A stretch of 64,000 nt of DNA from Mosigvirus mar005p1. A program made the translations under genes and the position numbers. Positions 21,900 to 47,100 of the stretch are shown piece by piece. The notes below the pieces were generated by a model. The model did no database searches, had not been told where the DNA came from, and was given only the letters and a program-made list of their open reading frames with translations. Positions within the stretch are counted from its first letter, which is position 1; each line of letters begins with the position of its first letter. The stretch lies in sequence record OZ035759.1; one strand, 5' to 3'.

Positions 21900-22504
21900 T
21901 GCATTCCAATCACAAAAAATTGAGGACGAGCATTACCGCCGATGCAATATTTGCTTTTGCAACAGTGTTGGACTGTTTTAATATGGATGTCGTAAATCTT
22001 ATCCATATCAGGAGCTTTAATAGGCTCGTCAATTATATACAGAATACGAGAAAGCGTTAATCCACGGAATTTAGAACCTTCATTGCCAATAAAACTACGG
22101 ACAGAATCAGTAAATAAACGGAATCGAATATCGTCGCTAGAATAACGAGAAAATTCTTTTTCAATGTTGCCAGCAGAAATTTTAGCATAAGCTGAAGTAT
22201 TAGAAAGAACAATAACTGTTCCACCATCATACAGCCAATTAGCAGCAAAGTTAGTCACAGCAATTGATTTACCTGATTGTCTGCCACCGTCTAAACGAAG
22301 TGTACAGTACTGCTTGAGTACGTCTTCAAATGGTGGGACATAACCGTTCTTACAAATTTCTTCTACTCTAGCATCAGAATGGTGTGTAAAAGCATTCATC
22401 AGGGATAGATAAGGACCAGTTAAAAATGTTCTCATTTTATTCTCTCTAAATTTGGGCCATTCCATGGCGCATGTTAGGTCCTTCGACTCGCTATGTAAAC
22501 CCAT
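21896..22504 (-). CDS. P-loop NTPase-like protein (about 180-200 aa)
   Basis: Walker A-like GGRQSGKS and Walker B-like ILYIIDEP; start ambiguous (ATG candidates near 22435 and 22465). Confidence 0.55.
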   Translation of the reverse strand: MGLHSESKDLTCAMEWPKFRENKMRTFLTGPYLSLMNAFTHHSDARVEEICKNGYVPPFEDVLKQYCTLRLDGGRQSGKSIAVTNFAANWLYDGGTVIVLSNTSAYAKISAGNIEKEFSRYSSDDIRFRLFTDSVRSFIGNEGSKFRGLTLSRILYIIDEPIKAPDMDKIYDIHIKTVQHCCKSKYCIGGNARPQFFVIGMQ

Positions 22505-22606
22505 TACCGCATTGCGCTCGACCTTATTACAGGTTGGAAAAGGTACATCACTCAGAGGACTCGACGTTCATGAGGAGAGGTTGCGTTTCCCTTTATTAGG
22601 CAAGAA

Positions 22607-22936
22607 TTATACTCTAGGCTTTTGAGCTTGTTTGGTATTGGATTCCCATGCGGCTTTGGTAATTTTGTTAGCGGCATAACCAAAGGCATTAGATAGAACA
22701 CCTTTAGAGTTGAATACATCCAATCCAATAAGTACACCGGCTGTGTTAAATTTAGGAGCAAAGTACGCATTAGTTTTAGAAAGAGCTTTTTTCAATTCAG
22801 GGTCTTGAACCAAGCCATCAAAAACGCCTTTACTATTTACTTTATATGTTACTTTGGGATTTTTACCTTCTTCGATAGCAGCTTTCTGTTCCGCAGATAA
22901 TGTAACTTCAGTGATAAACTCCTGATATGTTTTCAT
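22607..22936 (-). CDS. internal (capsid-targeted) protein, IP-like
   Basis: N-terminal capsid targeting sequence MKTYQEFITE (T4 consensus MKTYQEFIAE). Confidence 0.65.
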   Translation of the reverse strand: MKTYQEFITEVTLSAEQKAAIEEGKNPKVTYKVNSKGVFDGLVQDPELKKALSKTNAYFAPKFNTAGVLIGLDVFNSKGVLSNAFGYAANKITKAAWESNTKQAQKPRV

Positions 22937-22961
22937 TTTGTTCCTATTGATTTAATTTATG

Positions 22962-23276
22962 TTATTCTTTAGGGAAGTTTTTAGAGTATGCATCATAAAG
23001 TTTATTACCAATACGGCGGAAGACTTTAGCTGCAAAACGGTTTTCAGGGTTTTTAATCATAATTTGCATCATGTAAGTTCCTGCATCCGAAAGAGCTTCT
23101 TCATAGTACCCATTAATTTCTTTAAGAGTCCTACGTTTACCACCAGGACCATCAACAGTAATTTTCCATTTACCTGTAGAAGTGCGGCTCGGTGGCTCAA
23201 CTTGTTCAATCCAAATATAACCACCTTCAACGCGTTGGTTGGCGGATTCTGCAATAAATTCTTTATACGTTTTCAT
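22962..23276 (-). CDS. internal (capsid-targeted) protein, IP-like
   Basis: N-terminal MKTYKEFIAE; own early promoter. Confidence 0.65.
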   Translation of the reverse strand: MKTYKEFIAESANQRVEGGYIWIEQVEPPSRTSTGKWKITVDGPGGKRRTLKEINGYYEEALSDAGTYMMQIMIKNPENRFAAKVFRRIGNKLYDAYSKNFPKE

Positions 23277-23307
23277 TTTTTGTTTCCTTGTTTGTTTTGA
23301 TAGAGTA

Positions 23308-23337
23308 ATTATACCATATTAATACTTAAGCGTAAAC
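23308..23337 (-). promoter_or_regulatory. early promoter (GTTTAC-N18-TATAAT) for IP-like gene
   Basis: Minus-strand consensus upstream of the 22962-23276 gene. Confidence 0.55.
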
Positions 23338-23340
23338 AAT

Positions 23341-23601
23341 TTAAGCTTTACCGCCAGAAATAATTCCGAAGTTGTTAAAATCATATCCAATATCGTCAAC
23401 ATCTACTTTAGGGCTTGCTACAACATAAGCAATTTCACTACGTTTTGCATAGGTGTTGATTTCTTTACCATCGCCACCTAAGAAAGAATACCCATTACGT
23501 TTTAATGAGCCAAAGTCTTCGGCATCACCAACGAAAGCTTTAACTTTAAATTTAGGACCTTTGGCAACTGCTTCAGCGATAAATTCTTGATACATTTTCA
23601 T
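23341..23601 (-). CDS. internal (capsid-targeted) protein, IP-like
   Basis: ATG at 23599-23601 gives MKMYQEFIAE; AAGGA SD. Confidence 0.6.
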   Translation of the reverse strand: MKMYQEFIAEAVAKGPKFKVKAFVGDAEDFGSLKRNGYSFLGGDGKEINTYAKRSEIAYVVASPKVDVDDIGYDFNNFGIISGGKA

Positions 23602-23608
23602 TTTTTCC

Positions 23609-24022
23609 TTAGTAAATTGATTTACCATAGTATTTGTACCAAGTCGGACGTTGAGCAATTTTTTCATCTAAGCGTGCTTGACTTATCGCAATAGACGCTT
23701 CAGACGGGACATAATTATTACGAAATTCGACAGGGATGTCGGAAATATCCTGGACTGACGTGTCCTTGATTTTGAAACCACGTTTCAAACATTCAGCGAT
23801 TAGCTCGATTTGTCGTAAACGTAAAAATTCGAGTTTGTCGTAAAAGAATGTTACGTGACCTGTGCCTAAGATAAATGTTGGAGAGATTTTAAAATCCTTT
23901 ACACGTTTACCGTTTTGAACATGTTTACGGACTGCACCAAATACGCGTGGTAATTCACGATACTCAGCCATAAGATGTTGGTCGGTCAGTTCAGAAACAA
24001 GTGTTAAATTGATACGAGTCAT
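23609..24022 (-). CDS. denV: endonuclease V (pyrimidine-dimer DNA glycosylase)
   Basis: 137 aa from ATG at 24020-24022 ([12 protein letters not shown]); near-identical to recalled T4 DenV. Confidence 0.9.
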
Positions 24023-24080
24023 AATTTCCTCCAAGTAGTTGATAGATGTATAGTATCAAAGTCCTTGGAGGAAGTAAACA

Positions 24081-24362
24081 CTATTTTTCTGAAGCGCCTG
24101 AAATATATTTTTCAAGACGTTGTTTCATCAGCGAGCCGTTCTTAGCGATTTCTTCCGGTTTATCGCACATACGTAACAAGGCTTCAAGCTTAGCGATATC
24201 GCTGGTACGTTCAAATTTGCGAGTATCTATCTTACTAGCAAGTTCAGAAATACGTGCTAGTAGACTTTCGGCTTCAACCAAAGCTGCACCTAGCTTAGTT
24301 GCAAATGTGTCAGTAGCTTCGTTAAGAATAGATTCTGATAAAAATTCACTATATGTTTTCAT
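24081..24362 (-). CDS. internal (capsid-targeted) protein, IP-like
   Basis: ATG at 24360-24362 gives [10 protein letters not shown]; start overlaps lysozyme stop. Confidence 0.6.
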
Positions 24363-24847
24363 ATATACGCTTTCCAAGTTCCTGTTTTAAATGTTGAGAT
24401 TACGCGTTTCGCGCGATTAGGTGTCTGACGATACCATTTAGATTGGGCGAGATTTACTGCCGCTTCATCCCAACGTTTCTGTTGAAGCATACGAAGAGAA
24501 TTAGTAAAACCGGCGACGCCTGATACACCCATTTGGAAGACCATATTGACCAATGCACATCGACGAACCGCATCTAAAGAATCATATACCGGTTTAAGTT
24601 TAGCATTACCCAAGATTCCGCGAACGGCTTTATCAACGTCTTCATTAAATAGCTTTTCAGCCTCATCAAGGGTAATTGTACCGTTGCATTTACGACCGAT
24701 CATTCTGTCAAGTTCAGCTTTAGCTACGGCTAAAGACGGGTTCTTTGTTACTAAATGGCCTATGCCAATCGTCCAAAAGCCTTCAGTGTCTTTGTATAAA
24801 GTCAGTCTAAGACCTTCGTCATTACGAAGCATTTCAAATATATTCAT
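24359..24847 (-). CDS. e: lysozyme (endolysin)
   Basis: 162 aa from MNIFEMLR; about 80% identical to T4 lysozyme (catalytic E11/D20/T26 context conserved). Confidence 0.95.
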
Positions 24848-24851
24848 AATA

Positions 24852-24871
24852 CCTCCCACGTTTATAGGAGG
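24852..24871 (-). promoter_or_regulatory. lysozyme e translational control hairpin with embedded late promoter-like element
   Basis: Minus strand CCTCC-TATAAACGTG-GGAGG-tatt-ATG: the SD GGAGG pairs with upstream CCTCC; TATAAACG lies in the loop. Confidence 0.6.
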
Positions 24872-24881
24872 TATTTATTAC

Positions 24882-25340
24882 TTATAGGAGGGTAGTGAGC
24901 ACCTTATATAATGATTTACCCATTACATATTCCCATTGAGAAGGTTTAATTAAAGCGAATGCATCAAATTCAGGAATCTGTCGTCCGTCTGGGAATGTAT
25001 GATAGGAATTACAAACACTGTTTCTGAATTGCTCGTGCTCTACAGGGATGGTATATAGGAACAGATGAATATTCTTATTATCTGAGTAATGATGTTCACC
25101 TAGGTCTTTCAGGAAGGCAGGGTCATATTGTGTAAACCCAGTTTCTTCTTCGCATTCACGAATAGCGGCTTCAATAGGAGATTCACCGGGCTCGACACGT
25201 CCTTTAGGAATATCCCACCGATGAGCTAAAGAACCTTTAGGACGAGAACCAGTTACACGCCCCATGAATAATTCTTTATCTTCGGTAAGGAAAATAATAC
25301 CGGCTGATAGTTCTTTCACTTTATTTTTCTTACTCATCAT
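24882..25340 (-). CDS. nudE: Nudix hydrolase
   Basis: Nudix box GRVEPGESPIEAAIRECEEETGF; immediately follows e as in T4. Confidence 0.8.
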   Translation of the reverse strand: MMSKKNKVKELSAGIIFLTEDKELFMGRVTGSRPKGSLAHRWDIPKGRVEPGESPIEAAIRECEEETGFTQYDPAFLKDLGEHHYSDNKNIHLFLYTIPVEHEQFRNSVCNSYHTFPDGRQIPEFDAFALIKPSQWEYVMGKSLYKVLTTLL

Positions 25341-32129: not shown

Positions 32130-32756
32130 TTACTTACGAGTTTTTGCATACTGAGCAGCGTCAGCAGCCAAACGACCTGCCTGACGAAGTTTTTCTTTAA
32201 TCGCATCGTGAAGTGGTTGAGTGTACTTCAAACCTTCGATAGTCAAATAAAGACGATAAAGGTCCGGGGTATCAAGGTTGTTGATATGTTGGCCATTACG
32301 AAGACTATTGAATTCACGAACGAGTGAAGATGTATCGGATTCAATATCACGAACAAGCGAAGATAGTTGTTTATATTTTTTTTCCAGGCTAGAAGTATCA
32401 AACTTAAGAGCAGGAGCTTTAGGAGTTGCTTTTACTTCCGGCTTAGGCTCAGGTTTTGTTATTGCTTTAGGGGTCGCAGGTTTAGGAATGGTAGGAGCAG
32501 GTTTTACTTTAGGCGAACCCGATTTAGCAGAAACACCACCACTAACAATATCTTTGAATGCTTTAGAAGCTCTGTAATATTCTTTTTGGCTGGAAGTGTC
32601 GATACCGTACATGGCTTGAACGTTTTTGAAAAACTCTGTACTAGTTTTTGTACCAGAAATAGCATCGTAAGCAGCTTGCCATTTCTCTTTTGTCATACGT
32701 ACGCCGGCTTCGGTGATTACTTCCGTTTCGGCTAAAAATTCATTAAAAGTATACAT
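32130..32756 (-). CDS. internal (capsid-targeted) protein, IPIII-like (208 aa)
   Basis: N-terminal MYTFNEFLAE resembles the capsid targeting sequence; Pro/Lys-rich middle; late TATAAATA upstream. Confidence 0.6.
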   Translation of the reverse strand: MYTFNEFLAETEVITEAGVRMTKEKWQAAYDAISGTKTSTEFFKNVQAMYGIDTSSQKEYYRASKAFKDIVSGGVSAKSGSPKVKPAPTIPKPATPKAITKPEPKPEVKATPKAPALKFDTSSLEKKYKQLSSLVRDIESDTSSLVREFNSLRNGQHINNLDTPDLYRLYLTIEGLKYTQPLHDAIKEKLRQAGRLAADAAQYAKTRK

Positions 32757-32791: not shown

Positions 32792-32799
32792 TATTTATA
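32792..32799 (-). promoter_or_regulatory. late promoter (TATAAATA) for IPIII-like gene
   Basis: Exact consensus on minus strand, just downstream of terminator hairpin, about 36 nt upstream of the ATG at 32756. Confidence 0.55.
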
Positions 32800-32830
32800 C
32801 AAAAAAAGCCCCAACCTTTCGGAAGGGGCT
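32800..32830 (-). terminator. rho-independent terminator after tRNA/stable-RNA region
   Basis: Minus strand AGCCCCTTCCGAAAGGTTGGGGCT followed by TTTTTTT; near-identical to the rI terminator. Confidence 0.65.
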
Positions 32831-32963: not shown

Positions 32964-33133
32964 CGTCAAAAACGCTACTCGGCTTACGGCAAAGATATTT
33001 CCTCGAATCGATAATTCGGTGCGCCGTTTCTGCTGTGATGTAAGGGGATATTAACAAATCGTAAAGATTTATTAAGACCAGTCCTTACTCAGGGAACATC
33101 AGTCCGACGACTTGCCGGTAGCGACCCGGCTTC

Positions 33134-33478
33134 TTATTTTGACATATCATCAATTTGCTCTCGACGCCGACGCCATAGATTAATCGCTTCATTACCACAT
33201 TCGGCGTTTGGTATATGACGGCAATAATATAATGATTCGCGTTTCTGGAACCGATGTTGCAATGGGATTTCGTTTAAAAGGTCTTTACGATCAAAGTATT
33301 CAAAACTAGTTAACCCAGAACGGTTTTTAATGAACTTCCAATGTCCAAATTCATTTTGAACATAGATGTAATCGGCATGCTGATACAGCGAATTAATCAA
33401 TCGGTCTGAAATAACTGTATCGTGTTCGTTAAAATAAAACGTTAAATCATGAACTACTAAGTAAACATTACCTTTCAT
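33134..33478 (-). CDS. hypothetical protein (114 aa) between tRNAs and tRNA-like RNA
   Basis: ATG at 33476-33478 (MKGNVYLVV) with GAGGAAA SD; the longer track ORF would overlap tRNA-Arg. Confidence 0.5.
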   Translation of the reverse strand: MKGNVYLVVHDLTFYFNEHDTVISDRLINSLYQHADYIYVQNEFGHWKFIKNRSGLTSFEYFDRKDLLNEIPLQHRFQKRESLYYCRHIPNAECGNEAINLWRRRREQIDDMSK

Positions 33479-33496: not shown

Positions 33497-33573
<77 letters not shown>

Positions 33574-33576
33574 GAT

Positions 33577-33653
33577 TGGTGACCCAGACCAGATTCGAAC
33601 TGGTAACCTTTCCCTTATGAGGGGACTGCTGCTAACCATTGAGCTACAGGGCC
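33577..33653 (-). tRNA. tRNA with anticodon CAU (Met or lysidine-modified Ile)
   Basis: Acceptor GGCCCTG/CTGGGTC (one T-T mismatch), anticodon loop CTCATAA, T-arm ACCAG-TTCGAAT-CTGGT, 3' ACCA encoded; D-arm atypical. Confidence 0.6.
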
Positions 33654-35160: not shown

Positions 35161-35448
35161 TTACAGAAGAGTTTTTGCAATAATTTTAAGCTGAGCTACA
35201 GAAATATGCTTAGCTTTAAACAGTGCAGTCTCTTCAGCGGGAGAGATAACAATAGTAGCGCCATCTTTCTTAGCGGACCACCCGTCTCCTAAGTAAACAG
35301 TACCTTTTACTTCTTCGCCGTCAACCAGACTAATCATTGGTTTACCCTCACGTCCTTTATTTGCTTTAATAACTTCGGAAGTAAGGGTTGCTTCGGTCAG
35401 AGTAGAAACGTTAGCAACAGGTGATATAAATTCTTTATAGGTTTTCAT
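35161..35448 (-). CDS. ipI: internal protein I-like (capsid-targeted)
   Basis: 95 aa; N-terminal MKTYKEFISP; directly upstream of 57B as T4 ipI. Confidence 0.7.
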   Translation of the reverse strand: MKTYKEFISPVANVSTLTEATLTSEVIKANKGREGKPMISLVDGEEVKGTVYLGDGWSAKKDGATIVISPAEETALFKAKHISVAQLKIIAKTLL

Positions 35449-35525
35449 TTTATTTCCTTGAGGTTGTTTATTTGATAGGATGATAGTATCACACCATCAT
35501 CCTTATGTAAACTGTTTTGTGAAAA

Positions 35526-42157: not shown

Positions 42158-44131
42158 ATGGCAAACACTCCTGTAAATTATCAGTTAGTCAGAACAGCGA
42201 ATGCTATTCCCGAGATTTTTATCGGGGGCACATTTGCCGAAATCAAACAGAACATTATCGAATGGCTCAATGGGCAGAATGAATTTCTTGATTATGATTT
42301 TGAAGGTTCACGCTTAAACGTATTGTGCGACCTTTTAGCATATAACACTCTTTACATCCAACAGTTCAGTAATAGTGCAGTGTATGAAAGTTTTATGCGT
42401 ACTGCAAACTTGCGTAGTTCTGTTGTACAAGCGGCTCAAGATAACGGATATCTGCCTTCATCTAAATCAGCAGCGCAAACAGAAATTATGCTCACATGTA
42501 CGGATGCATTAAATAGAAACTATATCACCATTCCACGCGGCACTCGTTTCTTAGCATACGCTAAAGATACTTCTGTTAACCCGTATAACTTTGTTTCCAC
42601 TGAAGATGTCATTGTAGTTAAAGACAAAAATAACCAATATTTTCCACGTCTTCGATTAGCTCAAGGACGTATTGTTCGCACTGAATTAACATTTGATAAA
42701 TTAAAACCTATCATTATTCGTGATAAGAATATTGACCGTAATTTGGTTAAGTTGTATGTTGACGGAGCAGAATGGATTAACTGGACTCGTAAGTCGATGG
42801 TTCATGCTGGTTCTACGTCAACAATCTATTATATGCGTGAAACAGTTGATGGGAACACAGAATTTTATTTTGGTGAAGGCGAAATCTCTATTAACACATC
42901 AGAAGGTGCGTTAACATCTAACTATATTGGTGGTCTTAAACCTGTTCAGGGTTCTAAAATAGTAATTGAGTATATTTCTACTAATGGTGCAGATGCTAAC
43001 GGTGCTGTAGGATTTTCTTATGCTGATACATTAGCTAATATCACGGTAATCGATATTAATGAGAACCCTAGCAATAACCCAGACTTTGTCGGCGCCGACG
43101 GTGGCGGTGACCCTGAAGATATTGAACGTATTCGAGAATTAGGCACAATTAAACGCGAAACTCAACAACGTTGTGTAACCGCTTCCGACTATGACACATT
43201 CGTCTCTGAGCGGTTTGGTTCTATTATTCAAGCGGTTCAAACATTCACAGATTCATCTAAACCAGGGTACGCATATATTGCTGCTAAGCCTAAATCTGGA
43301 TTGTATTTGACTTCTGTCCAACGCGATGATATCAAAAACTATTTGAATGATTATAACTTAGGGACTATTACACCTGTTGTTATTTCGCCTGATTATTTGT
43401 TTATCAAAATGAATATCAAAGTTACATACGCGTTGAATAAACTCCAAGAATCAGAACAATATCTTGAAGGGCAAATTATTAATAAAATTGACCGATATTA
43501 TATTGAAGATGTAGAAATTTTTAACTCATCGTTTGCAAAATCTAAAATGCTAACTTATGTCGATGATGCAGATATTTCTATTATTGGTTCTTCAGCTACT
43601 ATTCAAATGGTTCGCGAAGTACAAAACTTCTATAAAACGCCTGAGGCCGGTATTAAATACAATAATCAGATTAAAGATAGATCGATGGAATCTAATATAT
43701 TCTCGTTTGATTCGCACAGACCTAATCCAGAAAATGCAAACGAAACTATTAAATATGGTGTTCGCATAGTATCTTCTGACCGTAATGACCGTGGCATAGG
43801 TCAAGTTATTATTGGTCCATTTGCAGACGGCGATGTTGTTGAAAACGAAAATATACAACCTTATACAGGTAATGATTTTAATAAACTTACTGTTACTGAC
43901 GGACGAAACAAATACTATTCAATTGGTGAAGTGAATTATCCTGTCGATTCGATTTATTGGAACATTGCTAAAATTGACCTCACTTCAGACCGTTTTGAAG
44001 TTCAAACAATTGAACTTTATTCCGACCCTGCAGATGATATTATTTTTACAAAGGATGGTTCTTTAATCGTATTCGAAAATGACTTACGTCCTCAGTACTT
44101 AACTATAGATTTGGAGCCTATTTCACAATGA
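42158..44131 (+). CDS. 6: gp6 baseplate wedge protein
   Basis: 657 aa from ATG at 42158 (MANTPVNYQLV) with AGGAA SD; T4 order/size. Confidence 0.9.
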   Translation: MANTPVNYQLVRTANAIPEIFIGGTFAEIKQNIIEWLNGQNEFLDYDFEGSRLNVLCDLLAYNTLYIQQFSNSAVYESFMRTANLRSSVVQAAQDNGYLPSSKSAAQTEIMLTCTDALNRNYITIPRGTRFLAYAKDTSVNPYNFVSTEDVIVVKDKNNQYFPRLRLAQGRIVRTELTFDKLKPIIIRDKNIDRNLVKLYVDGAEWINWTRKSMVHAGSTSTIYYMRETVDGNTEFYFGEGEISINTSEGALTSNYIGGLKPVQGSKIVIEYISTNGADANGAVGFSYADTLANITVIDINENPSNNPDFVGADGGGDPEDIERIRELGTIKRETQQRCVTASDYDTFVSERFGSIIQAVQTFTDSSKPGYAYIAAKPKSGLYLTSVQRDDIKNYLNDYNLGTITPVVISPDYLFIKMNIKVTYALNKLQESEQYLEGQIINKIDRYYIEDVEIFNSSFAKSKMLTYVDDADISIIGSSATIQMVREVQNFYKTPEAGIKYNNQIKDRSMESNIFSFDSHRPNPENANETIKYGVRIVSSDRNDRGIGQVIIGPFADGDVVENENIQPYTGNDFNKLTVTDGRNKYYSIGEVNYPVDSIYWNIAKIDLTSDRFEVQTIELYSDPADDIIFTKDGSLIVFENDLRPQYLTIDLEPISQ

Positions 44132-47100
44132 CAGTAAAAGCGCCAGCAGTCACAAGTCTCAGAATATCCAAGTTGTCCGCTAACCAAGTTCAAATACGCT
44201 GGGATGACGTTGGTGCTAATTTCTACTATTTCGTAGAAATCGCTGAGACTAAAACGGCAGACGGGGAAATAATTCCCCCTGCCAGCTACAGATGGATAAA
44301 TTTAGGATATACTCCTAATAGCAACTGGTTCGAAAGTAGCTTAGACCCATTAACTTCTTATATTATTCGTGTATCAACTGCGGCCGAAGGCTTCGAGAGA
44401 TCTGATTGGGTATATACCGAAATATTTGAATCATTTCAGACTAACGCGTATACATTTCAACATATGATTGAAATGCAATTGGCTAACACTTTTATTAGAG
44501 AAAAATTTACAAATAACAACATGGCTTATGTCGATTTTAATAACGACACTATAATGGCAGCTCTAATGAATGAATCGTTCCAATTTAGCCCTGCTTATGC
44601 GGATATTTCATCTATTAAAAATTTCATTATTGGCGAAAATGAGTATCATGAAATTCAAGGTTCGATTCAACAGGTGTGTCATGATATAAACCGTGTTTAT
44701 TTGATGGAATCCGAAGGAATTCTTTATTTGTTTGAACGGTATCAGCCTGTGGTTAAAGTCTCTAATGATAAGGGACAAACCTGGAAATCGGTTAAATTGT
44801 TTAATGACCGTGTAGGGTATCCTGTATCAAGAACAGTGTATTACCAGACAGGTTATACCACGTATGTTCTTGGGTACGATAAATTATTTTACGGTCGTAA
44901 ATCAACAGACGTTCGTTGGTCTGCTGATGACGTGAGATTTAGTTCCCAAGATATAACATTTGCTAAAATTGGCGACCAGTTAAATTTAGGATATGATGTA
45001 GAAATATTTGGTAACTATGCATCATTACCTGCTAACGTATCACGTATTGCAGAAGCTATCGTTTGCAATGATGATTATGTATACGTTGCTGCTCGAGATA
45101 AAGTTCGTTTTATTAAAACTAGTAATGCCCCTATCGATTCAGACCCGTTATCTCCGACATATTCCGAACGTTTGTTTGAACAAGAAACATTTAACATCAC
45201 AGGTAACCCTAAGGCAGTTTGTTATAAAATGGATTCTGTCGGTGGTAAAATATTTGCACTGATTATCGGTGAAGTTGTTAATCTTAATGACGACCCGAGG
45301 ACCACTCCTATTGTTGATTCTGCTGATAAGGGTGTTTACGTTCTAGACCATGACGCTGGCACATTTAAACGTGTGTTTGGTAATACTGAAGAAGAACGTC
45401 GCCGTATTGAACCAGGGTACACCAGTATGTCTACTGATGGTGTTGAGTTATCTATTTCATCTAGTAATTTTAAATTTCTAGAATCTGATATTGTTGATGA
45501 CCCAAAAACACAAATCAAGTACGGTTTAATCGGTGCTGTTAAATATGAGTATCCTCGTGAATGGCTGGCTGATAAACATTATCATATGATGGCATTTATT
45601 TCAACTGAAGACTCTCAATGGGAATCGTTCACTCCTCAACCGATGGAATACTATGCCGAGCCATTCTTTAGTTATTCTAGAAAGTCTGGTACTCGTTGTT
45701 GGATTAATAACTCAGACAAGGCCGTTGTAATTTATTCTGATTTACTTTACACTAAGGTTATTGAGAATCATCCACTTAGTTCTTCAGACCGTGAAGTTCA
45801 TGAATATTGGAAGGACGGTGACTGTACAATAGTGATGCCTAACGTAGATTTCACCGGATTTAAAAAATATGCATCCGGCATGATTTTCTATAAATCATCA
45901 GGTGAGATTATTTCTTATTATGATTTTAGTTATCGTGTTAGAGATAATGTTTCTATAATTTGGAAGCCTACTAATATATTCTTAACAGCATCGTTACAAA
46001 ACCAAGAAAAAGATACCACATGGACTCCTGTAGAAGAGAACGGTATTGCAGACCCAGATTTACGACCATTGCTCACTACAATGATGCCGGAGTCTTATCT
46101 TTTAGATAATACAAACTTCGAAGCATTCTGCGAGGCTTATATTCAGTATCTTTCTGACGGTTATGGGACCCATTATAACAACCTTTTAAATCTTATTAAA
46201 AATCAATATCCACGCGAAGAACATGCGTGGGAATATTTATGGTCTGAGATTTATAAACGAAACATTTACTTAAACGCCGAAAAACGCGATTTAGTGTCTC
46301 GTTTCTTTGAATCAAGAAGTTATGACTTCTATTCAACTAAAGGAACTGAAGCATCATATAAATTCTTGTTTAAAGTGCTTTATAACGAAGATGTTGAAAT
46401 TGAAATTGAATCTAGTTCCGGGACCGAATATGATATCATCGTTGAATCTGATTCGTTGACAGAAGATTTGGTCGGACAAACCATATACACCGCGACAGGA
46501 CGTTGTAATGTGACGTATATCGAGAGAAGTTACTCTAAAGGTAAATTACAATGGACTGTAACAATTCACAACCTCTTAGGTCGTTTAATCCAAGGACAGG
46601 AAGTTAAAGCTGAAAGACTCCCTGGTTTTGAAGGTGAAATTGTTCGTGGTATTAAAGGTAAAGAGCTTTCTCAGAACAACATCGATTACATAAATCGTGG
46701 TAGAGCATACTACGTAATGAAGATTAAATCTAAACTTCCATCATCTCGTTGGAAATCAGACGTATTACGTTTTGTTCATCCGGTTGGATTTGGATTTATC
46801 GCAATTACCCTTCTCACAATGTTTATTAACACCGGATTAACACTTAAACATGTTGAAACCATTATTAATAAATACAAAAACTATAAGTGGGATTCTGGAT
46901 TACCGACTAAATATGCAGACCGAGTGGCTAAATTAGACCCACAAGGAAATGTTGAGTTTGACCCTATTACAGGTAAAGCGATATATGAAATAGGCCCTAT
47001 GGCTGGTCAAGATTATCCATTACCTGAAGATTATAACGCTGAAAACAATAACTCCATATTTCAAGGTCAACTTCCATCGGAACGACGTAAACTGATGAGC

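Follow-up and report, generated by a model that had tools for sequence, protein, structure and literature searches.

Why does an RB69-like phage carry six genes whose products all begin with the capsid targeting sequence (CTS) of T4 or something close to it? The stretch of DNA analysed here, which we call the window, is 64,000 nucleotides of Mosigvirus mar005p1 (sequence record OZ035759.1), with nucleotide identity of 97-98% to RB69 and GADS24. Our answer is that the six genes are the full internal protein (Ip) complement of an RB69-like phage. All lie on the minus strand: ipA (22607-22936), ipB (22962-23276), ipC (23341-23601), ipD (24081-24362), ipE (32130-32756) and ipF (35161-35448). The original prediction named six such genes and grouped four of them around denV and e. 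Open reading frames with the quoted N-termini are indeed present at these positions, and 22607-24362 holds four of them as well as denV. By homology the set comprises an IPI orthologue, an Ip5 homologue, an Ip10 homologue, one 'internal head protein' family, and two families annotated only as hypothetical. It is important to realize that diverse CTS-tagged Ips acting as injected anti-restriction factors are already established (Rao & Black 2010; Silas 2025). The observation is correct and ordinary, so the gain from this analysis is modest: orthology for six genes, a corrected 'IPIII-like' label, two unannotated tag-bearing families that are now flagged, and a clean example of cassette exchange with its breakpoint at the tag.

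The tag itself is specific to the six. When all six frames of the window are searched with M-x-x-[YFW]-x-[ED]-[FYW]-[ILVM], the only real open reading frames that match are these six. A position-weight scan gives them 30.6-39.0 bits and the next best start in the window 7.8 bits, scores that are partly circular because the matrix was built from the six N-termini themselves plus three from T4. The complete GADS24 genome (168,896 bp) yields the same six with a runner-up at 11.2 bits, so no further tag-like start was found in the window or in the whole of GADS24. Chance can be rejected as the origin of the tags, since shuffled versions of the window (n=30) gave 0.03 matches per window at 12 bits or more. 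A check free of the circularity is identity to the T4 IPIII tag, MKTYQEFIAE, which from ipA to ipF is 9, 9, 9, 7, 6 and 7 out of 10. Read from the first Met of its frame, every protein begins M-x-x-[Y/F]-x-E-F, so residue 4 is aromatic (Y/F) and residue 7 is Phe in all six; residue 8 (I/L) and residue 10 (E) are kept in five of six. Aromatic 4 and Phe 7 are experimentally needed for CTS targeting in T4, where genetics shows that the conserved tag positions are required for targeting and processing and the motif for the gp21 protease is L/I-x-E (PMC9026906).

Candidate gp21 motifs of this type follow in all six: ITE10, IAE10, IAE10, LSE10 or LNE15, LAE10 or ITE16, and LTE19. The predicted cut follows residue 10 in ipA, ipB and ipC, residue 15 or 16 in ipD and ipE, and residue 19 in the IPI orthologue. 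Orthologues in the ipE and Ip5 families keep the downstream sites. Five mature forms would be 8-11 kDa and one 21 kDa, with pI from 8.1 to 10. Four of them have a pI of 9.6-10, and those of ipC and ipD come close to neutral. For comparison, the Ips of T4 are basic, with masses near 8, 10 and 20 kDa (PMC9026906). The alignment to the CTS consensus and gp21 sites that the original prediction proposed as a check thus finds both tag and motif in six of six, and a capsid-targeted internal protein reading fits every sequence-level criterion tried, whether tag residues, cleavage motif or orthology. The genomic setting is similar to what is known. Five of the six occupy known ip hotspots (denV/e/vs.8, or beside 57B); the remaining one, ipE, has a third location, below the tRNA/stable-RNA cluster. 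Co-linearity with GADS24 would place the window end inside the portal gene, and just past that end GADS24 has two prohead core proteins, a head maturation protease and a scaffold annotated at 43206-45354, so these head-assembly genes are seen in the relative and not within the window. A literature search turned up neither virion proteomics nor mapped N-termini for a Mosigvirus, and nothing usable for the Ips of JS98 or VR7; the RB69-era genome papers do not mention Ips.

The clearest assignment is ipF, which the original prediction identified as ipI, and we agree. It encodes 95 residues, with a putative propeptide of 19 (MKTYKEFISPVANVSTLTE followed by A) and a mature IPI* of 76, the predicted IPI-type cut falling between LTE19 and A. 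Residues 20-95, which correspond to the solved mature IPI*, match Pfam IPI_T4 (PF11634) at 1.3e-50 (169.7 bits against a cut-off of 25), the only Pfam match among the six proteins, and align with chain residues 1-76 of PDB 2JUB, 'Internal protein I', at 5.8e-42. Identity to T4 IPI is 88% overall, with 72/76 in the mature part and 12/19 in the propeptide, and the gene adjoins 57B as it does in T4. Homology of this kind makes ipF a member by sequence of the IPI family, Pfam PF11634, whose T4 representative IPI* inhibits a GmrSD type IV restriction enzyme.

The denV-e cluster is built on two conserved anchors. Gene e (T4-type lysozyme, 24359-24847, minus strand, 81% amino acid identity to T4 e) lies upstream of ipD, and denV (endonuclease V, 23609-24022, minus strand, 90% amino acid identity to T4 DenV and so annotated in RB69) has ip slots on either side. 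The start codon of ipD, a CTS protein of 93 residues, overlaps the stop codon of e. It matches phrog_3499, 'internal head protein', at 2e-46, and over its full length is 89% identical to VR20 'ip5, similar to T6 Ip5' and 51% to RB68 Ip5, whose gene is located at the ipI locus. These matches put ipD in the Ip5 family, and among the Ip5 homologues compared only the second site, LNE15 followed by A ([LI]-x-E15), is kept in all. A PDB sequence search with ipD gave nothing useful. On the other side of denV, ipC (86 residues, MKMYQEFIAE, motif IAE10 followed by A, SD-like AAGGA at -9) is the orthologue of RB69p125 'internal head protein' at 93% identity, is 74% identical to VR20_119, and matches phrog_2667 'internal head protein' at 1.4e-20. 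It is present in 217 records, Tequatroviruses among them. A longer ipC of 108 residues (23341-23667) was considered and rejected, as it overlaps denV, has no tag at its N-terminus and contradicts the annotation of its relatives.

The last two genes of the cluster are ipB and ipA. ipB (104 residues, MKTYKEFIAE, motif IAE10 followed by S) is 72% identical to VR20 Ip10 and 96% to PP01 'ip10: Ip10 internal head protein', its homologues carry names such as 'Ip10 [Shigella phage SP18]' and 'IpII internal head protein', and these matches from VR20, PP01 and SP18 place it in the Ip10 family, present in 189 records. Its AF2 model (pLDDT 58, from a six-sequence alignment) gave only non-specific fold matches in the PDB, which we set aside since the best, at E = 0.017, is a designed protein. 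ipA (109 residues, MKTYQEFITE, SD-like AGGA at -9) is the orthologue of RB69 ORF123c at 98% identity, annotated hypothetical, with motifs ITE10 followed by V and IEE23 followed by G, and a predicted mature form of 9.3-10.7 kDa and pI 9.7-10. It matches phrog_3966, 'unknown function'. Of the 90 phage records with a copy, 76 reach 95% identity or more, and nearly all are annotated hypothetical. Homologue searches with ipA and ipB in a set of 5.8 billion proteins found only 2-3 close relatives.

The original prediction called 32130-32756 'IPIII-like', and here we believe the label is only partly right. The size, charge and tag of ipE (208 residues, MYTFNEFLAE) do resemble IPIII, but there is no homology to IPIII past about residue 11. 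BLASTP similarity to T4 IPIII is confined to residues 1-24 (E = 0.005) and is due to the tag only, and ipE belongs to a PHROG other than that of IPIII, phrog_2280 'unknown function', at 7e-58. Tag-only similarity and a different PHROG lead us to reject ipE as an IPIII homologue. For comparison, the IPIII orthologue of phage 132 is 91% identical to T4 IPIII and has no match to ipE at E <= 1e-3. On sequence grounds ipE instead represents a CTS family in its own right, widely conserved, and the gene has a late promoter to itself. It occurs in 143 phage records, including phages of Escherichia, Enterobacter, Klebsiella, Serratia, Yersinia and Erwinia, and every homologue among the matches listed is annotated 'hypothetical' or not at all. 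In the family alignment, which reaches down to 47% identity, F7 and E16 never change, and E10 and A17 hardly ever do. The protein appears to have two helical domains joined by a Pro/Lys/Ala-rich linker, with the AF2 model (pLDDT 73) predicting helices at 23-72 and 122-206 and disorder at 74-112. A fold search with this model returned its own family alone from BFVD and generic helical hairpins from the PDB, and a PDB sequence search gave nothing useful. That ipE is conserved across genera and not hypervariable would suit a structural role no less than one in an arms race.

The word 'expanded' in the original prediction should not be taken to mean duplication. Apart from weak similarity between ipA and ipB the mature parts are unrelated, and the same cassettes are found in other genera. 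Since the six share only the tag, with one weak paralogue pair as the exception, the alignments say that the set is a mosaic of cassettes and not a gene-family expansion. One piece of evidence is a 1.25-kb block of the window, about 23250-24500, which is 95-100% identical to the Tequatrovirus phage 132, while nudE and the 5' part of e that flank it are 60-80% identical. The homology to phage 132 ends 29 nt into ipB, which is the end of the tag, and resumes in vs.8; between these points phage 132 carries IPIII and IPII where the window has ipB and ipA. Repeats of 40-49 nt spanning the ribosome site and the tag match at 81-85% between genes. We propose that the set was assembled by cassette exchange among T4-type phages, and that the conserved DNA of ribosome site plus tag provided the homology for recombination. 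A lineage-specific duplication and divergence of one ip gene can explain that ipA and ipB are adjacent, share one PHROG and are 26-32% identical (32% over 72 residues), but every other pair is common only in the first 10-14 residues or so. At 90-95% identity or more ipB, ipC and ipD are far more widespread among genomes than ipA and ipE, which are restricted to Mosigvirus. The genomes with these three include Tequatroviruses in which they are combined with IPII/IPIII, and in VR20 the unrelated Ip7 fills the slot of ipA. We consider duplication as the source of the six to be highly improbable.

What would such a set do? By analogy with T4, from whose experiments tag-dependent packaging, gp21 processing, injection and the inhibition of GmrSD by Ip1-3 are carried over, the N-terminal CTS of about ten residues would bind the gp22/gp67/gp68 scaffolding core, so that the protein is built into the prohead. 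The gp21 prohead protease would then cut after the Glu of the L/I-x-E motif, freeing small neutral-to-basic mature proteins that would be kept in the head with the DNA and injected alongside it. In the new host they would act ahead of any phage gene expression, most likely by stoichiometric inhibition of first-line nucleases, and their chief targets would be type IV restriction enzymes of the GmrSD type, which act against phage DNA modified with sugars. Taken as a whole, from tag-guided packaging through gp21 cleavage, injection and anti-restriction action to a set assembled from cassettes, we think this explanation is probably right. We infer the packaging of each of the six in this phage, and likewise the target of every one, the IPI orthologue included.

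The 'host-range arsenal' of the original prediction agrees, by analogy, with published results on Ip1-3 and GmrSD and on BrxU. T4 Ip1, Ip2 and Ip3 each inhibit a distinct GmrSD type IV restriction enzyme (PMC12373910), and IPIII is required on ECOR17 (PMC9391042). A tag-bearing protein at the ipI locus of Bas37 is required on a K-12 strain with McrA, McrBC and Mrr, is dispensable on a variant that lacks them, and is proposed to be their inhibitor (bioRxiv 10.1101/2025.11.20.689424). BrxU, of the GmrSD family, restricts a Mosigvirus in vivo, and in vitro it cleaves all modified phage DNAs tested, arabinosylated DNA included (PMC13390438). The modification of RB69-type DNA is arabosyl-5-hydroxycytosine and not glucosyl-hmC (PMC13326640), and because it differs from that of T4 the target specificities known from T4 may not transfer. 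Folds gave no functional lead for ipA to ipE, the ipE model finding its own family only and the ipB model reaching pLDDT 58.

Transcription signals bear on when these proteins are made, and the signals are mixed. The late promoter that the original prediction gave to 32130-32756 is present: an exact TATAAATA at 32792-32799 on the minus strand, 43 nt upstream of the ipE start codon. The window's minus strand contains only five such exact matches in all, none within 22.5-25.2 kb, and among the six genes ipE alone has one. Directly upstream of this promoter, at 32800-32830 on the minus strand, is a terminator-like hairpin with a U-run (stem AGCCCC/GGGGCU then U7, RNA fold -16.6 kcal/mol, z = -2.85), which a simple terminator scan overlooked. 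Early-type promoter-like elements that match the consensus, both on the minus strand and with TG, stand upstream of ipB (23308-23337, GTTTAC-N17-TATAAT) and of ipF (35483-35512, GTTTAC-N17-TACTAT); the one before ipB scores 10/12 in a sigma-70 scan and was also found by motif search. With early-type matches before ipB and ipF and no late promoter at denV-e, late expression of the denV-e cluster is assumed.

These promoters raise the question whether the shared N-terminus is only a relic of cassette recombination, with some of the six being ordinary early cytoplasmic proteins that are never packaged. The lack of an exact late promoter in the denV-e cluster would fit this, as would the coincidence of the tag DNA with a recombination breakpoint. 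However, the targeting and cleavage residues persist throughout the six and in orthologues as distant as 47% identity, amid variation at the positions around them, which points to selection on the peptide and not on the DNA alone. ipD is translationally coupled to e, whose lysozyme acts at lysis, and IPI, with the most diverged propeptide (12/19), is packaged in T4 by experiment. We find the relic scenario very unlikely. A more serious objection is that some or all of the six, ipE above all, are mainly structural, serving as basic head filling, in core assembly or in neutralising DNA charge, a role that has been proposed for IPIII of T4, and are not inhibitors of defence. Four mature forms have the strongly basic pI noted above, Ip lysines touch DNA (PMC3012670), and T4 IPIII mutants have head-assembly aberrations (PMC9026906); ipE has a disordered Lys/Pro/Ala-rich linker and, following a terminator-like hairpin, a late promoter to itself, and is kept across several genera rather than swapped. 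Against this, T4 IPIII itself inhibits a GmrSD, acting tag-less in the cytoplasm (PMC9391042, PMC12373910), so basic charge and a structural phenotype are compatible with an anti-defence function. Mature ipC and ipD are near neutral, and the denV-e genes are exchangeable as cassettes, which is typical of accessory and not of structural genes. A mainly structural role seems to us somewhat unlikely, and injected anti-restriction proteins remain our preferred reading.

Several known systems can be compared with this set. The T4 Ips share with this set the N-terminal CTS and L/I-x-E motif, two loci (denV-e and 57B-tRNA), the three size classes, basic charge and a true IPI orthologue. Unlike T4, the window is without IPII and IPIII, five of six mature domains have no relative among the T4 Ips, genes lie on both sides of denV and at a third locus below the tRNA/stable-RNA region, and the DNA carries arabinosyl-5-hydroxycytosine where T4 has glucosyl-hmC. 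Another parallel is the polymorphic Ip4-Ip10 series of T-even phages, for which PMC12373910 and PMC9026906 cite Repoila et al. 1994; genes annotated in this way occur in T6, VR7/VR20, SP18, PP01 and RB68. Here ipD is a homologue of Ip5 and ipB of Ip10, and ipC matches 'internal head protein' genes. The locus layout is that of VR20, e-ip5-denV-ip10-(ipC-like)-ip7-vs.8, differing in the vs.8-proximal slot, where VR20 has Ip7 and the window has ipA. The records and PHROGs examined hold no Ip name or function for the ipA or ipE families, Repoila 1994 and Comeau 2007 lying outside this comparison. The Dar proteins of P1, as outlined in PMC12810830, are likewise pre-made anti-restriction proteins packed in the head and injected with DNA, but they have another incorporation hierarchy (DarA/Hdf), are large and lack an MKTY-type tag, and no homology was found between them and the six. 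T4 Alt and the inner-body proteins of phiKZ and SPN3US are head-internal, trimmed after Glu by a gp21-like protease and delivered to the host (PMC9026906), whereas Alt has no MKTY-type tag and is cut at both ends, and the giant-phage proteins have S/A-x-E sites and an organised inner body.

The practical interest of the set lies in its timing, since in a freshly infected cell the Ips go to work before any other phage molecule. Each T4 Ip decides growth on strains with a particular type IV restriction enzyme. RB69-type phages are often isolated for therapy and biocontrol, and knowing the full Ip complement of one narrows the candidate host-range determinants to a few that can be tested.

How far does the tag reach beyond the named Ips? 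A census with a short profile (30 columns from the six N-termini) against 1.84 billion representative proteins returned only 7 matches, most of them members of these same families and one a spurious repeat protein, and is uninformative because in a database so large a motif of 10 residues cannot reach significance. In its place we used an exact degenerate-DNA scan for the canonical tag in IMG/VR, which found at least 123 complete open reading frames. With 18 labelled Ips these make at least 141 proteins in at least 65 mature-domain clusters, and among the matches listed named or annotated Ips fall in only about nine of them. We tentatively suggest, as a possibility that falls somewhat short of even, that the MKTY-type tag is a general address label far beyond the named Ips, delivering enzymes as well as small inhibitors. 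On that reading the delivery system would include ipA and the widely conserved ipE as members so far unrecognised, and the Mosigvirus set would be tuned to enzymes attacking arabinosylated DNA. The largest cluster among the matches listed has 26 open reading frames from T4-like cyanophages and marine contigs and belongs to the Pfam S-AdoMet lyase family PF23780, so these phages might inject a ready-made enzyme that degrades SAM and thereby disarm restriction that depends on it. In the T4-like cyanophage S-CREM2 a SAM hydrolase, ORF6, was reportedly detected by virion proteomics.

The original prediction placed six genes in the window whose proteins begin with the T4 capsid targeting sequence (CTS, or tag), about 10 N-terminal residues long, and all six open reading frames are there with the quoted N-termini. 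They lie on the minus strand; we call them ipA (22607-22936), ipB (22962-23276), ipC (23341-23601), ipD (24081-24362), ipE (32130-32756) and ipF (35161-35448). These are the sole real ORFs matched by a six-frame regular expression for the tag. A position-weight scan of ORF starts puts the six at 30.6-39.0 bits and the next best at 7.8 bits, although these scores are partly circular because the matrix was built with the six included. A non-circular check is identity to the tag of the T4 internal protein (Ip) IPIII, MKTYQEFIAE, which is 9, 9, 9, 7, 6 and 7 of 10. The start codons of five of the six genes are backed by a Shine-Dalgarno-like AGGA or AAGGA at -8 to -13, and the start of ipD overlaps the stop of e as ATGA, an arrangement that suggests translational coupling. 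The same scan of the complete genome of GADS24, the closest relative (168,896 bp), finds the same six, with the next best at 11.2 bits, and shuffling leaves 0.03 matches per window at 12 bits or more. Six thus appears to be the full Ip complement of this phage type, every one inside the window.

Over window positions 22400-24900 the identity is 97.4% with phage RB69 and 98.4% with phage GADS24, both of the genus Mosigvirus in the Tevenvirinae. The minus-strand order nudE, e, ip, denV, ip, ip, ip, vs.8 bears out the claim that four of the six genes surround denV and e. Further on in the window come a tRNA/stable-RNA region, the 208-aa gene (ipE), trna.x-like genes, ipI, 57B, 57A and gene 1. RB69 and T4 have this order too. 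Window 33000-33140 and 33497-33653 hold, just upstream of ipE, a stretch 88% identical to the T4 region with the stable RNA rnaD (species 2 RNA) and then two tRNA genes (Arg-TCT, Met-CAT) as against eight in T4.

Homology assigns most of these genes to families. ipD belongs to the Ip5 family (89% to the VR20 gene labelled 'ip5, similar to T6 Ip5'; 51% to RB68 Ip5, whose gene is found at the ipI locus instead of the e locus) and ipB to the Ip10 family (72% to VR20 Ip10; 96% to the PP01 'Ip10 internal head protein'). For ipC the matches are RB69p125 and a large number of genes labelled 'internal head protein'. ipA corresponds to RB69 ORF123c, whose sole annotation is 'hypothetical'; weak paralogy links it to Ip10 (26-32% identity, same PHROG), and its slot in VR20 holds the unrelated Ip7. 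ipF is, as first called, an orthologue of IPI: Pfam IPI_T4 matches residues 20-95 (1.3e-50), the solved mature IPI* (PDB 2JUB) aligns to precisely these residues, and the mature part is identical to T4 IPI at 72/76 positions and the propeptide at 12/19. The propeptide is thus the more diverged part, the opposite of the other Ips. Nearby, 57A and gp1 are only 55% and 62% identical to T4, and the closeness of mature IPI persists despite the arabinosyl-5-hydroxycytosine DNA of this phage type, as against glucosyl-hmC. An IPI homologue of RB69 had already been noted (PMC13326640).

Single-base indels in ipB and ipD set the RB69 reference (L001, NC_004928) apart from the window. In RB69 one additional G shortens ORF124c, the homologue of Ip10 (L001 2607-2879), to 90 aa, and a deletion-insertion pair 24 nt apart in Ip5 (L001 3682-3963) rewrites its tag as MKTYMNFYQN, which keeps Y4, F7 and LNE15/A (the slash marks the predicted cleavage point). 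In ORF123c Ala replaces Glu10. The indel and tag differences may be sequencing errors rather than real variants, since a 2026 paper reports other errors in the same record (PMC13326640).

Mutants of T4 IPIII show that residues 4 and 7 are the main determinants of targeting and residues 8 and 10 those of processing, and gp21 cleaves after Glu in L/I-x-E (PMC9026906). When the N-termini are compared with the CTS consensus and gp21 sites, the determinants are found in all six. Position 4 is Y/F and position 7 is F in 6/6 proteins, while position 8 is I/L and position 10 is E in 5/6; ipF has Pro at 10 and LTE19/A instead, which is the IPI arrangement. In two families it is the downstream sites that the orthologues preserve. 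The ipE family, compared down to 47% identity, has F7 and E16 in every sequence and E10 and A17 in nearly all, and one member that lacks the first site keeps ISE/A. In the Ip5 family (VR20, RB69, RB68) only [LI]-x-E15 is retained. The predicted mature forms, five at 8.0-10.8 kDa and one at 21.3-21.9 kDa with pI 8.1-10.0, mirror the T4 Ips, which are basic and about 8, 10 and 20 kDa. We found no Mosigvirus virion proteomics in the literature.

Was this set 'expanded', as first proposed? In the sense of gene-family duplication we believe it was not: ipA and ipB apart, what the six have in common is confined to the first 10-14 residues. T4 has three Ips and this phage six, about twice as many; six per genome is not exceptional, since the denV-e locus of VR20 and of phage 132 likewise has four genes with the tag. 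The pattern is that of a mosaic. Matches occur in 90 phage records for ipA (76 at >=95% identity), 143 for ipE (71 at >=90%), 189 for ipB (131 at >=95%), 217 for ipC (154 at >=90%) and 496 for ipD (232 at >=95%), and by these differing counts ipB, ipC and ipD reach far beyond Mosigvirus with almost no change. Tequatrovirus phage 132 (MZ417521) has the order e-Ip5-denV-ipC-IPIII-IPII-vs.8. Its identity to the window is 60-80% through nudE and 5' e and 95-100% from about 24500 to 23250, a block of ~1.25 kb holding 3' e, Ip5, denV, ipC and the tag of ipB. Where the tag finishes, 29 nt into ipB, the homology stops, to restart at 93% in vs.8. The block points to a recent exchange across genus boundaries. 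Repeats of 40-49 nt that span ribosome site and tag match at 81-85% between different ip genes, and in pairwise comparison 19-26 of the first 30 coding bases are identical. All this fits an exchange of cassettes by way of the tag sequence, in line with the modularity described in the T4 literature.

ipE had been called IPIII-like with a late promoter. The promoter stands: an exact late promoter, TATAAATA, lies at 32792-32799, directly behind a terminator-like hairpin, and ipE alone among the six has one. The IPIII homology falls, as the similarity stops after the tag and the genuine IPIII of phage 132 has no match to ipE. The gene instead defines phrog_2280, found in phages of Escherichia, Enterobacter, Klebsiella, Serratia, Yersinia and Erwinia and, among the matches listed, always 'hypothetical' or unannotated. 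Its AF2 model shows two helical domains, 23-72 and 122-206, with a disordered linker rich in Pro, Lys and Ala between them; fold searches gave no informative structural neighbour. The denV-e cluster holds one-mismatch variants of the late promoter and no exact copy, and early-type promoter matches by consensus comparison precede ipB and ipF. Upstream of e, at 24852-24886, a hairpin CCTCC-TATAAACGTG-GGAGG would sequester its Shine-Dalgarno sequence, directly preceded by near-consensus late-promoter sequences TATAAGTA and AATAAATA. A similar layout is described for the T4 lysozyme gene, where only late transcripts are translated.

From the conserved determinants, and from gp21 and core genes in a relative's genome, we infer that the tag would bring each Ip into the scaffolding core, that gp21 would trim it, and that the mature proteins would stay with the DNA in the head and then be co-injected, each step being established in T4 (PMC9026906, PMC3012670). 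The literature agrees that T4 Ips include anti-restriction factors: Ip1, Ip2 and Ip3 block one GmrSD-type restriction enzyme apiece, each a different one, without cross-protection (PMC12373910), and IPIII without its tag is active in the cytoplasm (PMC9391042). Phage Bas37 has, at its ipI locus, another protein with the tag that is required on a K-12 strain with the type IV systems McrA, McrBC and Mrr and dispensable on a variant without them, and the authors propose that it inhibits these systems (bioRxiv 10.1101/2025.11.20.689424). RB69-type DNA carries arabinosylated 5-hydroxycytosine (PMC13326640); BrxU, an enzyme of the GmrSD family, restricts a Mosigvirus, and in vitro it cleaved all modified phage DNAs tested, including arabinosylated DNA (PMC13390438). 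Given this literature on T4 Ips, Bas37 and BrxU, type IV enzymes are a plausible candidate target class for the proposed host-range arsenal. The main rival is a structural or DNA-charge role, strongest for ipE, and it is compatible with an anti-defence role.

The observation holds and is of a kind already known. Silas et al. 2025 state that at least 10 Ips had been reported and call the loci an anti-defence hotspot (PMC12373910), and ipA and ipE may already be listed as Ips in Repoila et al. 1994 or Comeau et al. 2007. This analysis adds the assignment of orthologues, the correction of the IPIII label, two families that bear the tag without being annotated for it, and a breakpoint located at the tag.

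The tag also occurs beyond the named Ips. An exact IMG/VR scan for DNA encoding MKTYxEF[ILMF]xE, a pattern of about 37 bits by our own estimate, so that only a handful of chance matches is expected across the whole collection, returned at least 120 loci. Among the matches listed (L010-L129), complete ORFs of at least 45 aa open at 123/137 tag sites; with 18 labelled Ips these make 141 proteins, whose mature parts fall into at least 65 clusters. The largest cluster among the matches listed has at least 26 ORFs of 161-275 aa (e.g. L064:3967-4464, L011:235-759), and Pfam PF23780 (S-AdoMet lyase) matches 8/8 members tested with 57-79 bits where the cut-off is 28, its domain beginning at residue 27. 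Its hosts are T4-like cyanophages (P-TIM68, S-N03, P-SSM2 and others) and marine contigs with typical cyanomyovirus neighbours. A SAM hydrolase was detected in virions of the T4-like cyanophage S-CREM2 by proteomics (PMC10665884), and together this suggests a tag-delivered, injected SAM-degrading enzyme in T4-like cyanophages. On three contigs (L037, L039, L104), two from human-microbiome samples, an 836-aa protein starts MKTYIEFLKE; this match could be chance, since three contigs of one family amount to a single event. The protein joins an SNF2 helicase to an N6/N4 DNA methylase and recalls DarB of P1, of the packaged anti-restriction type.
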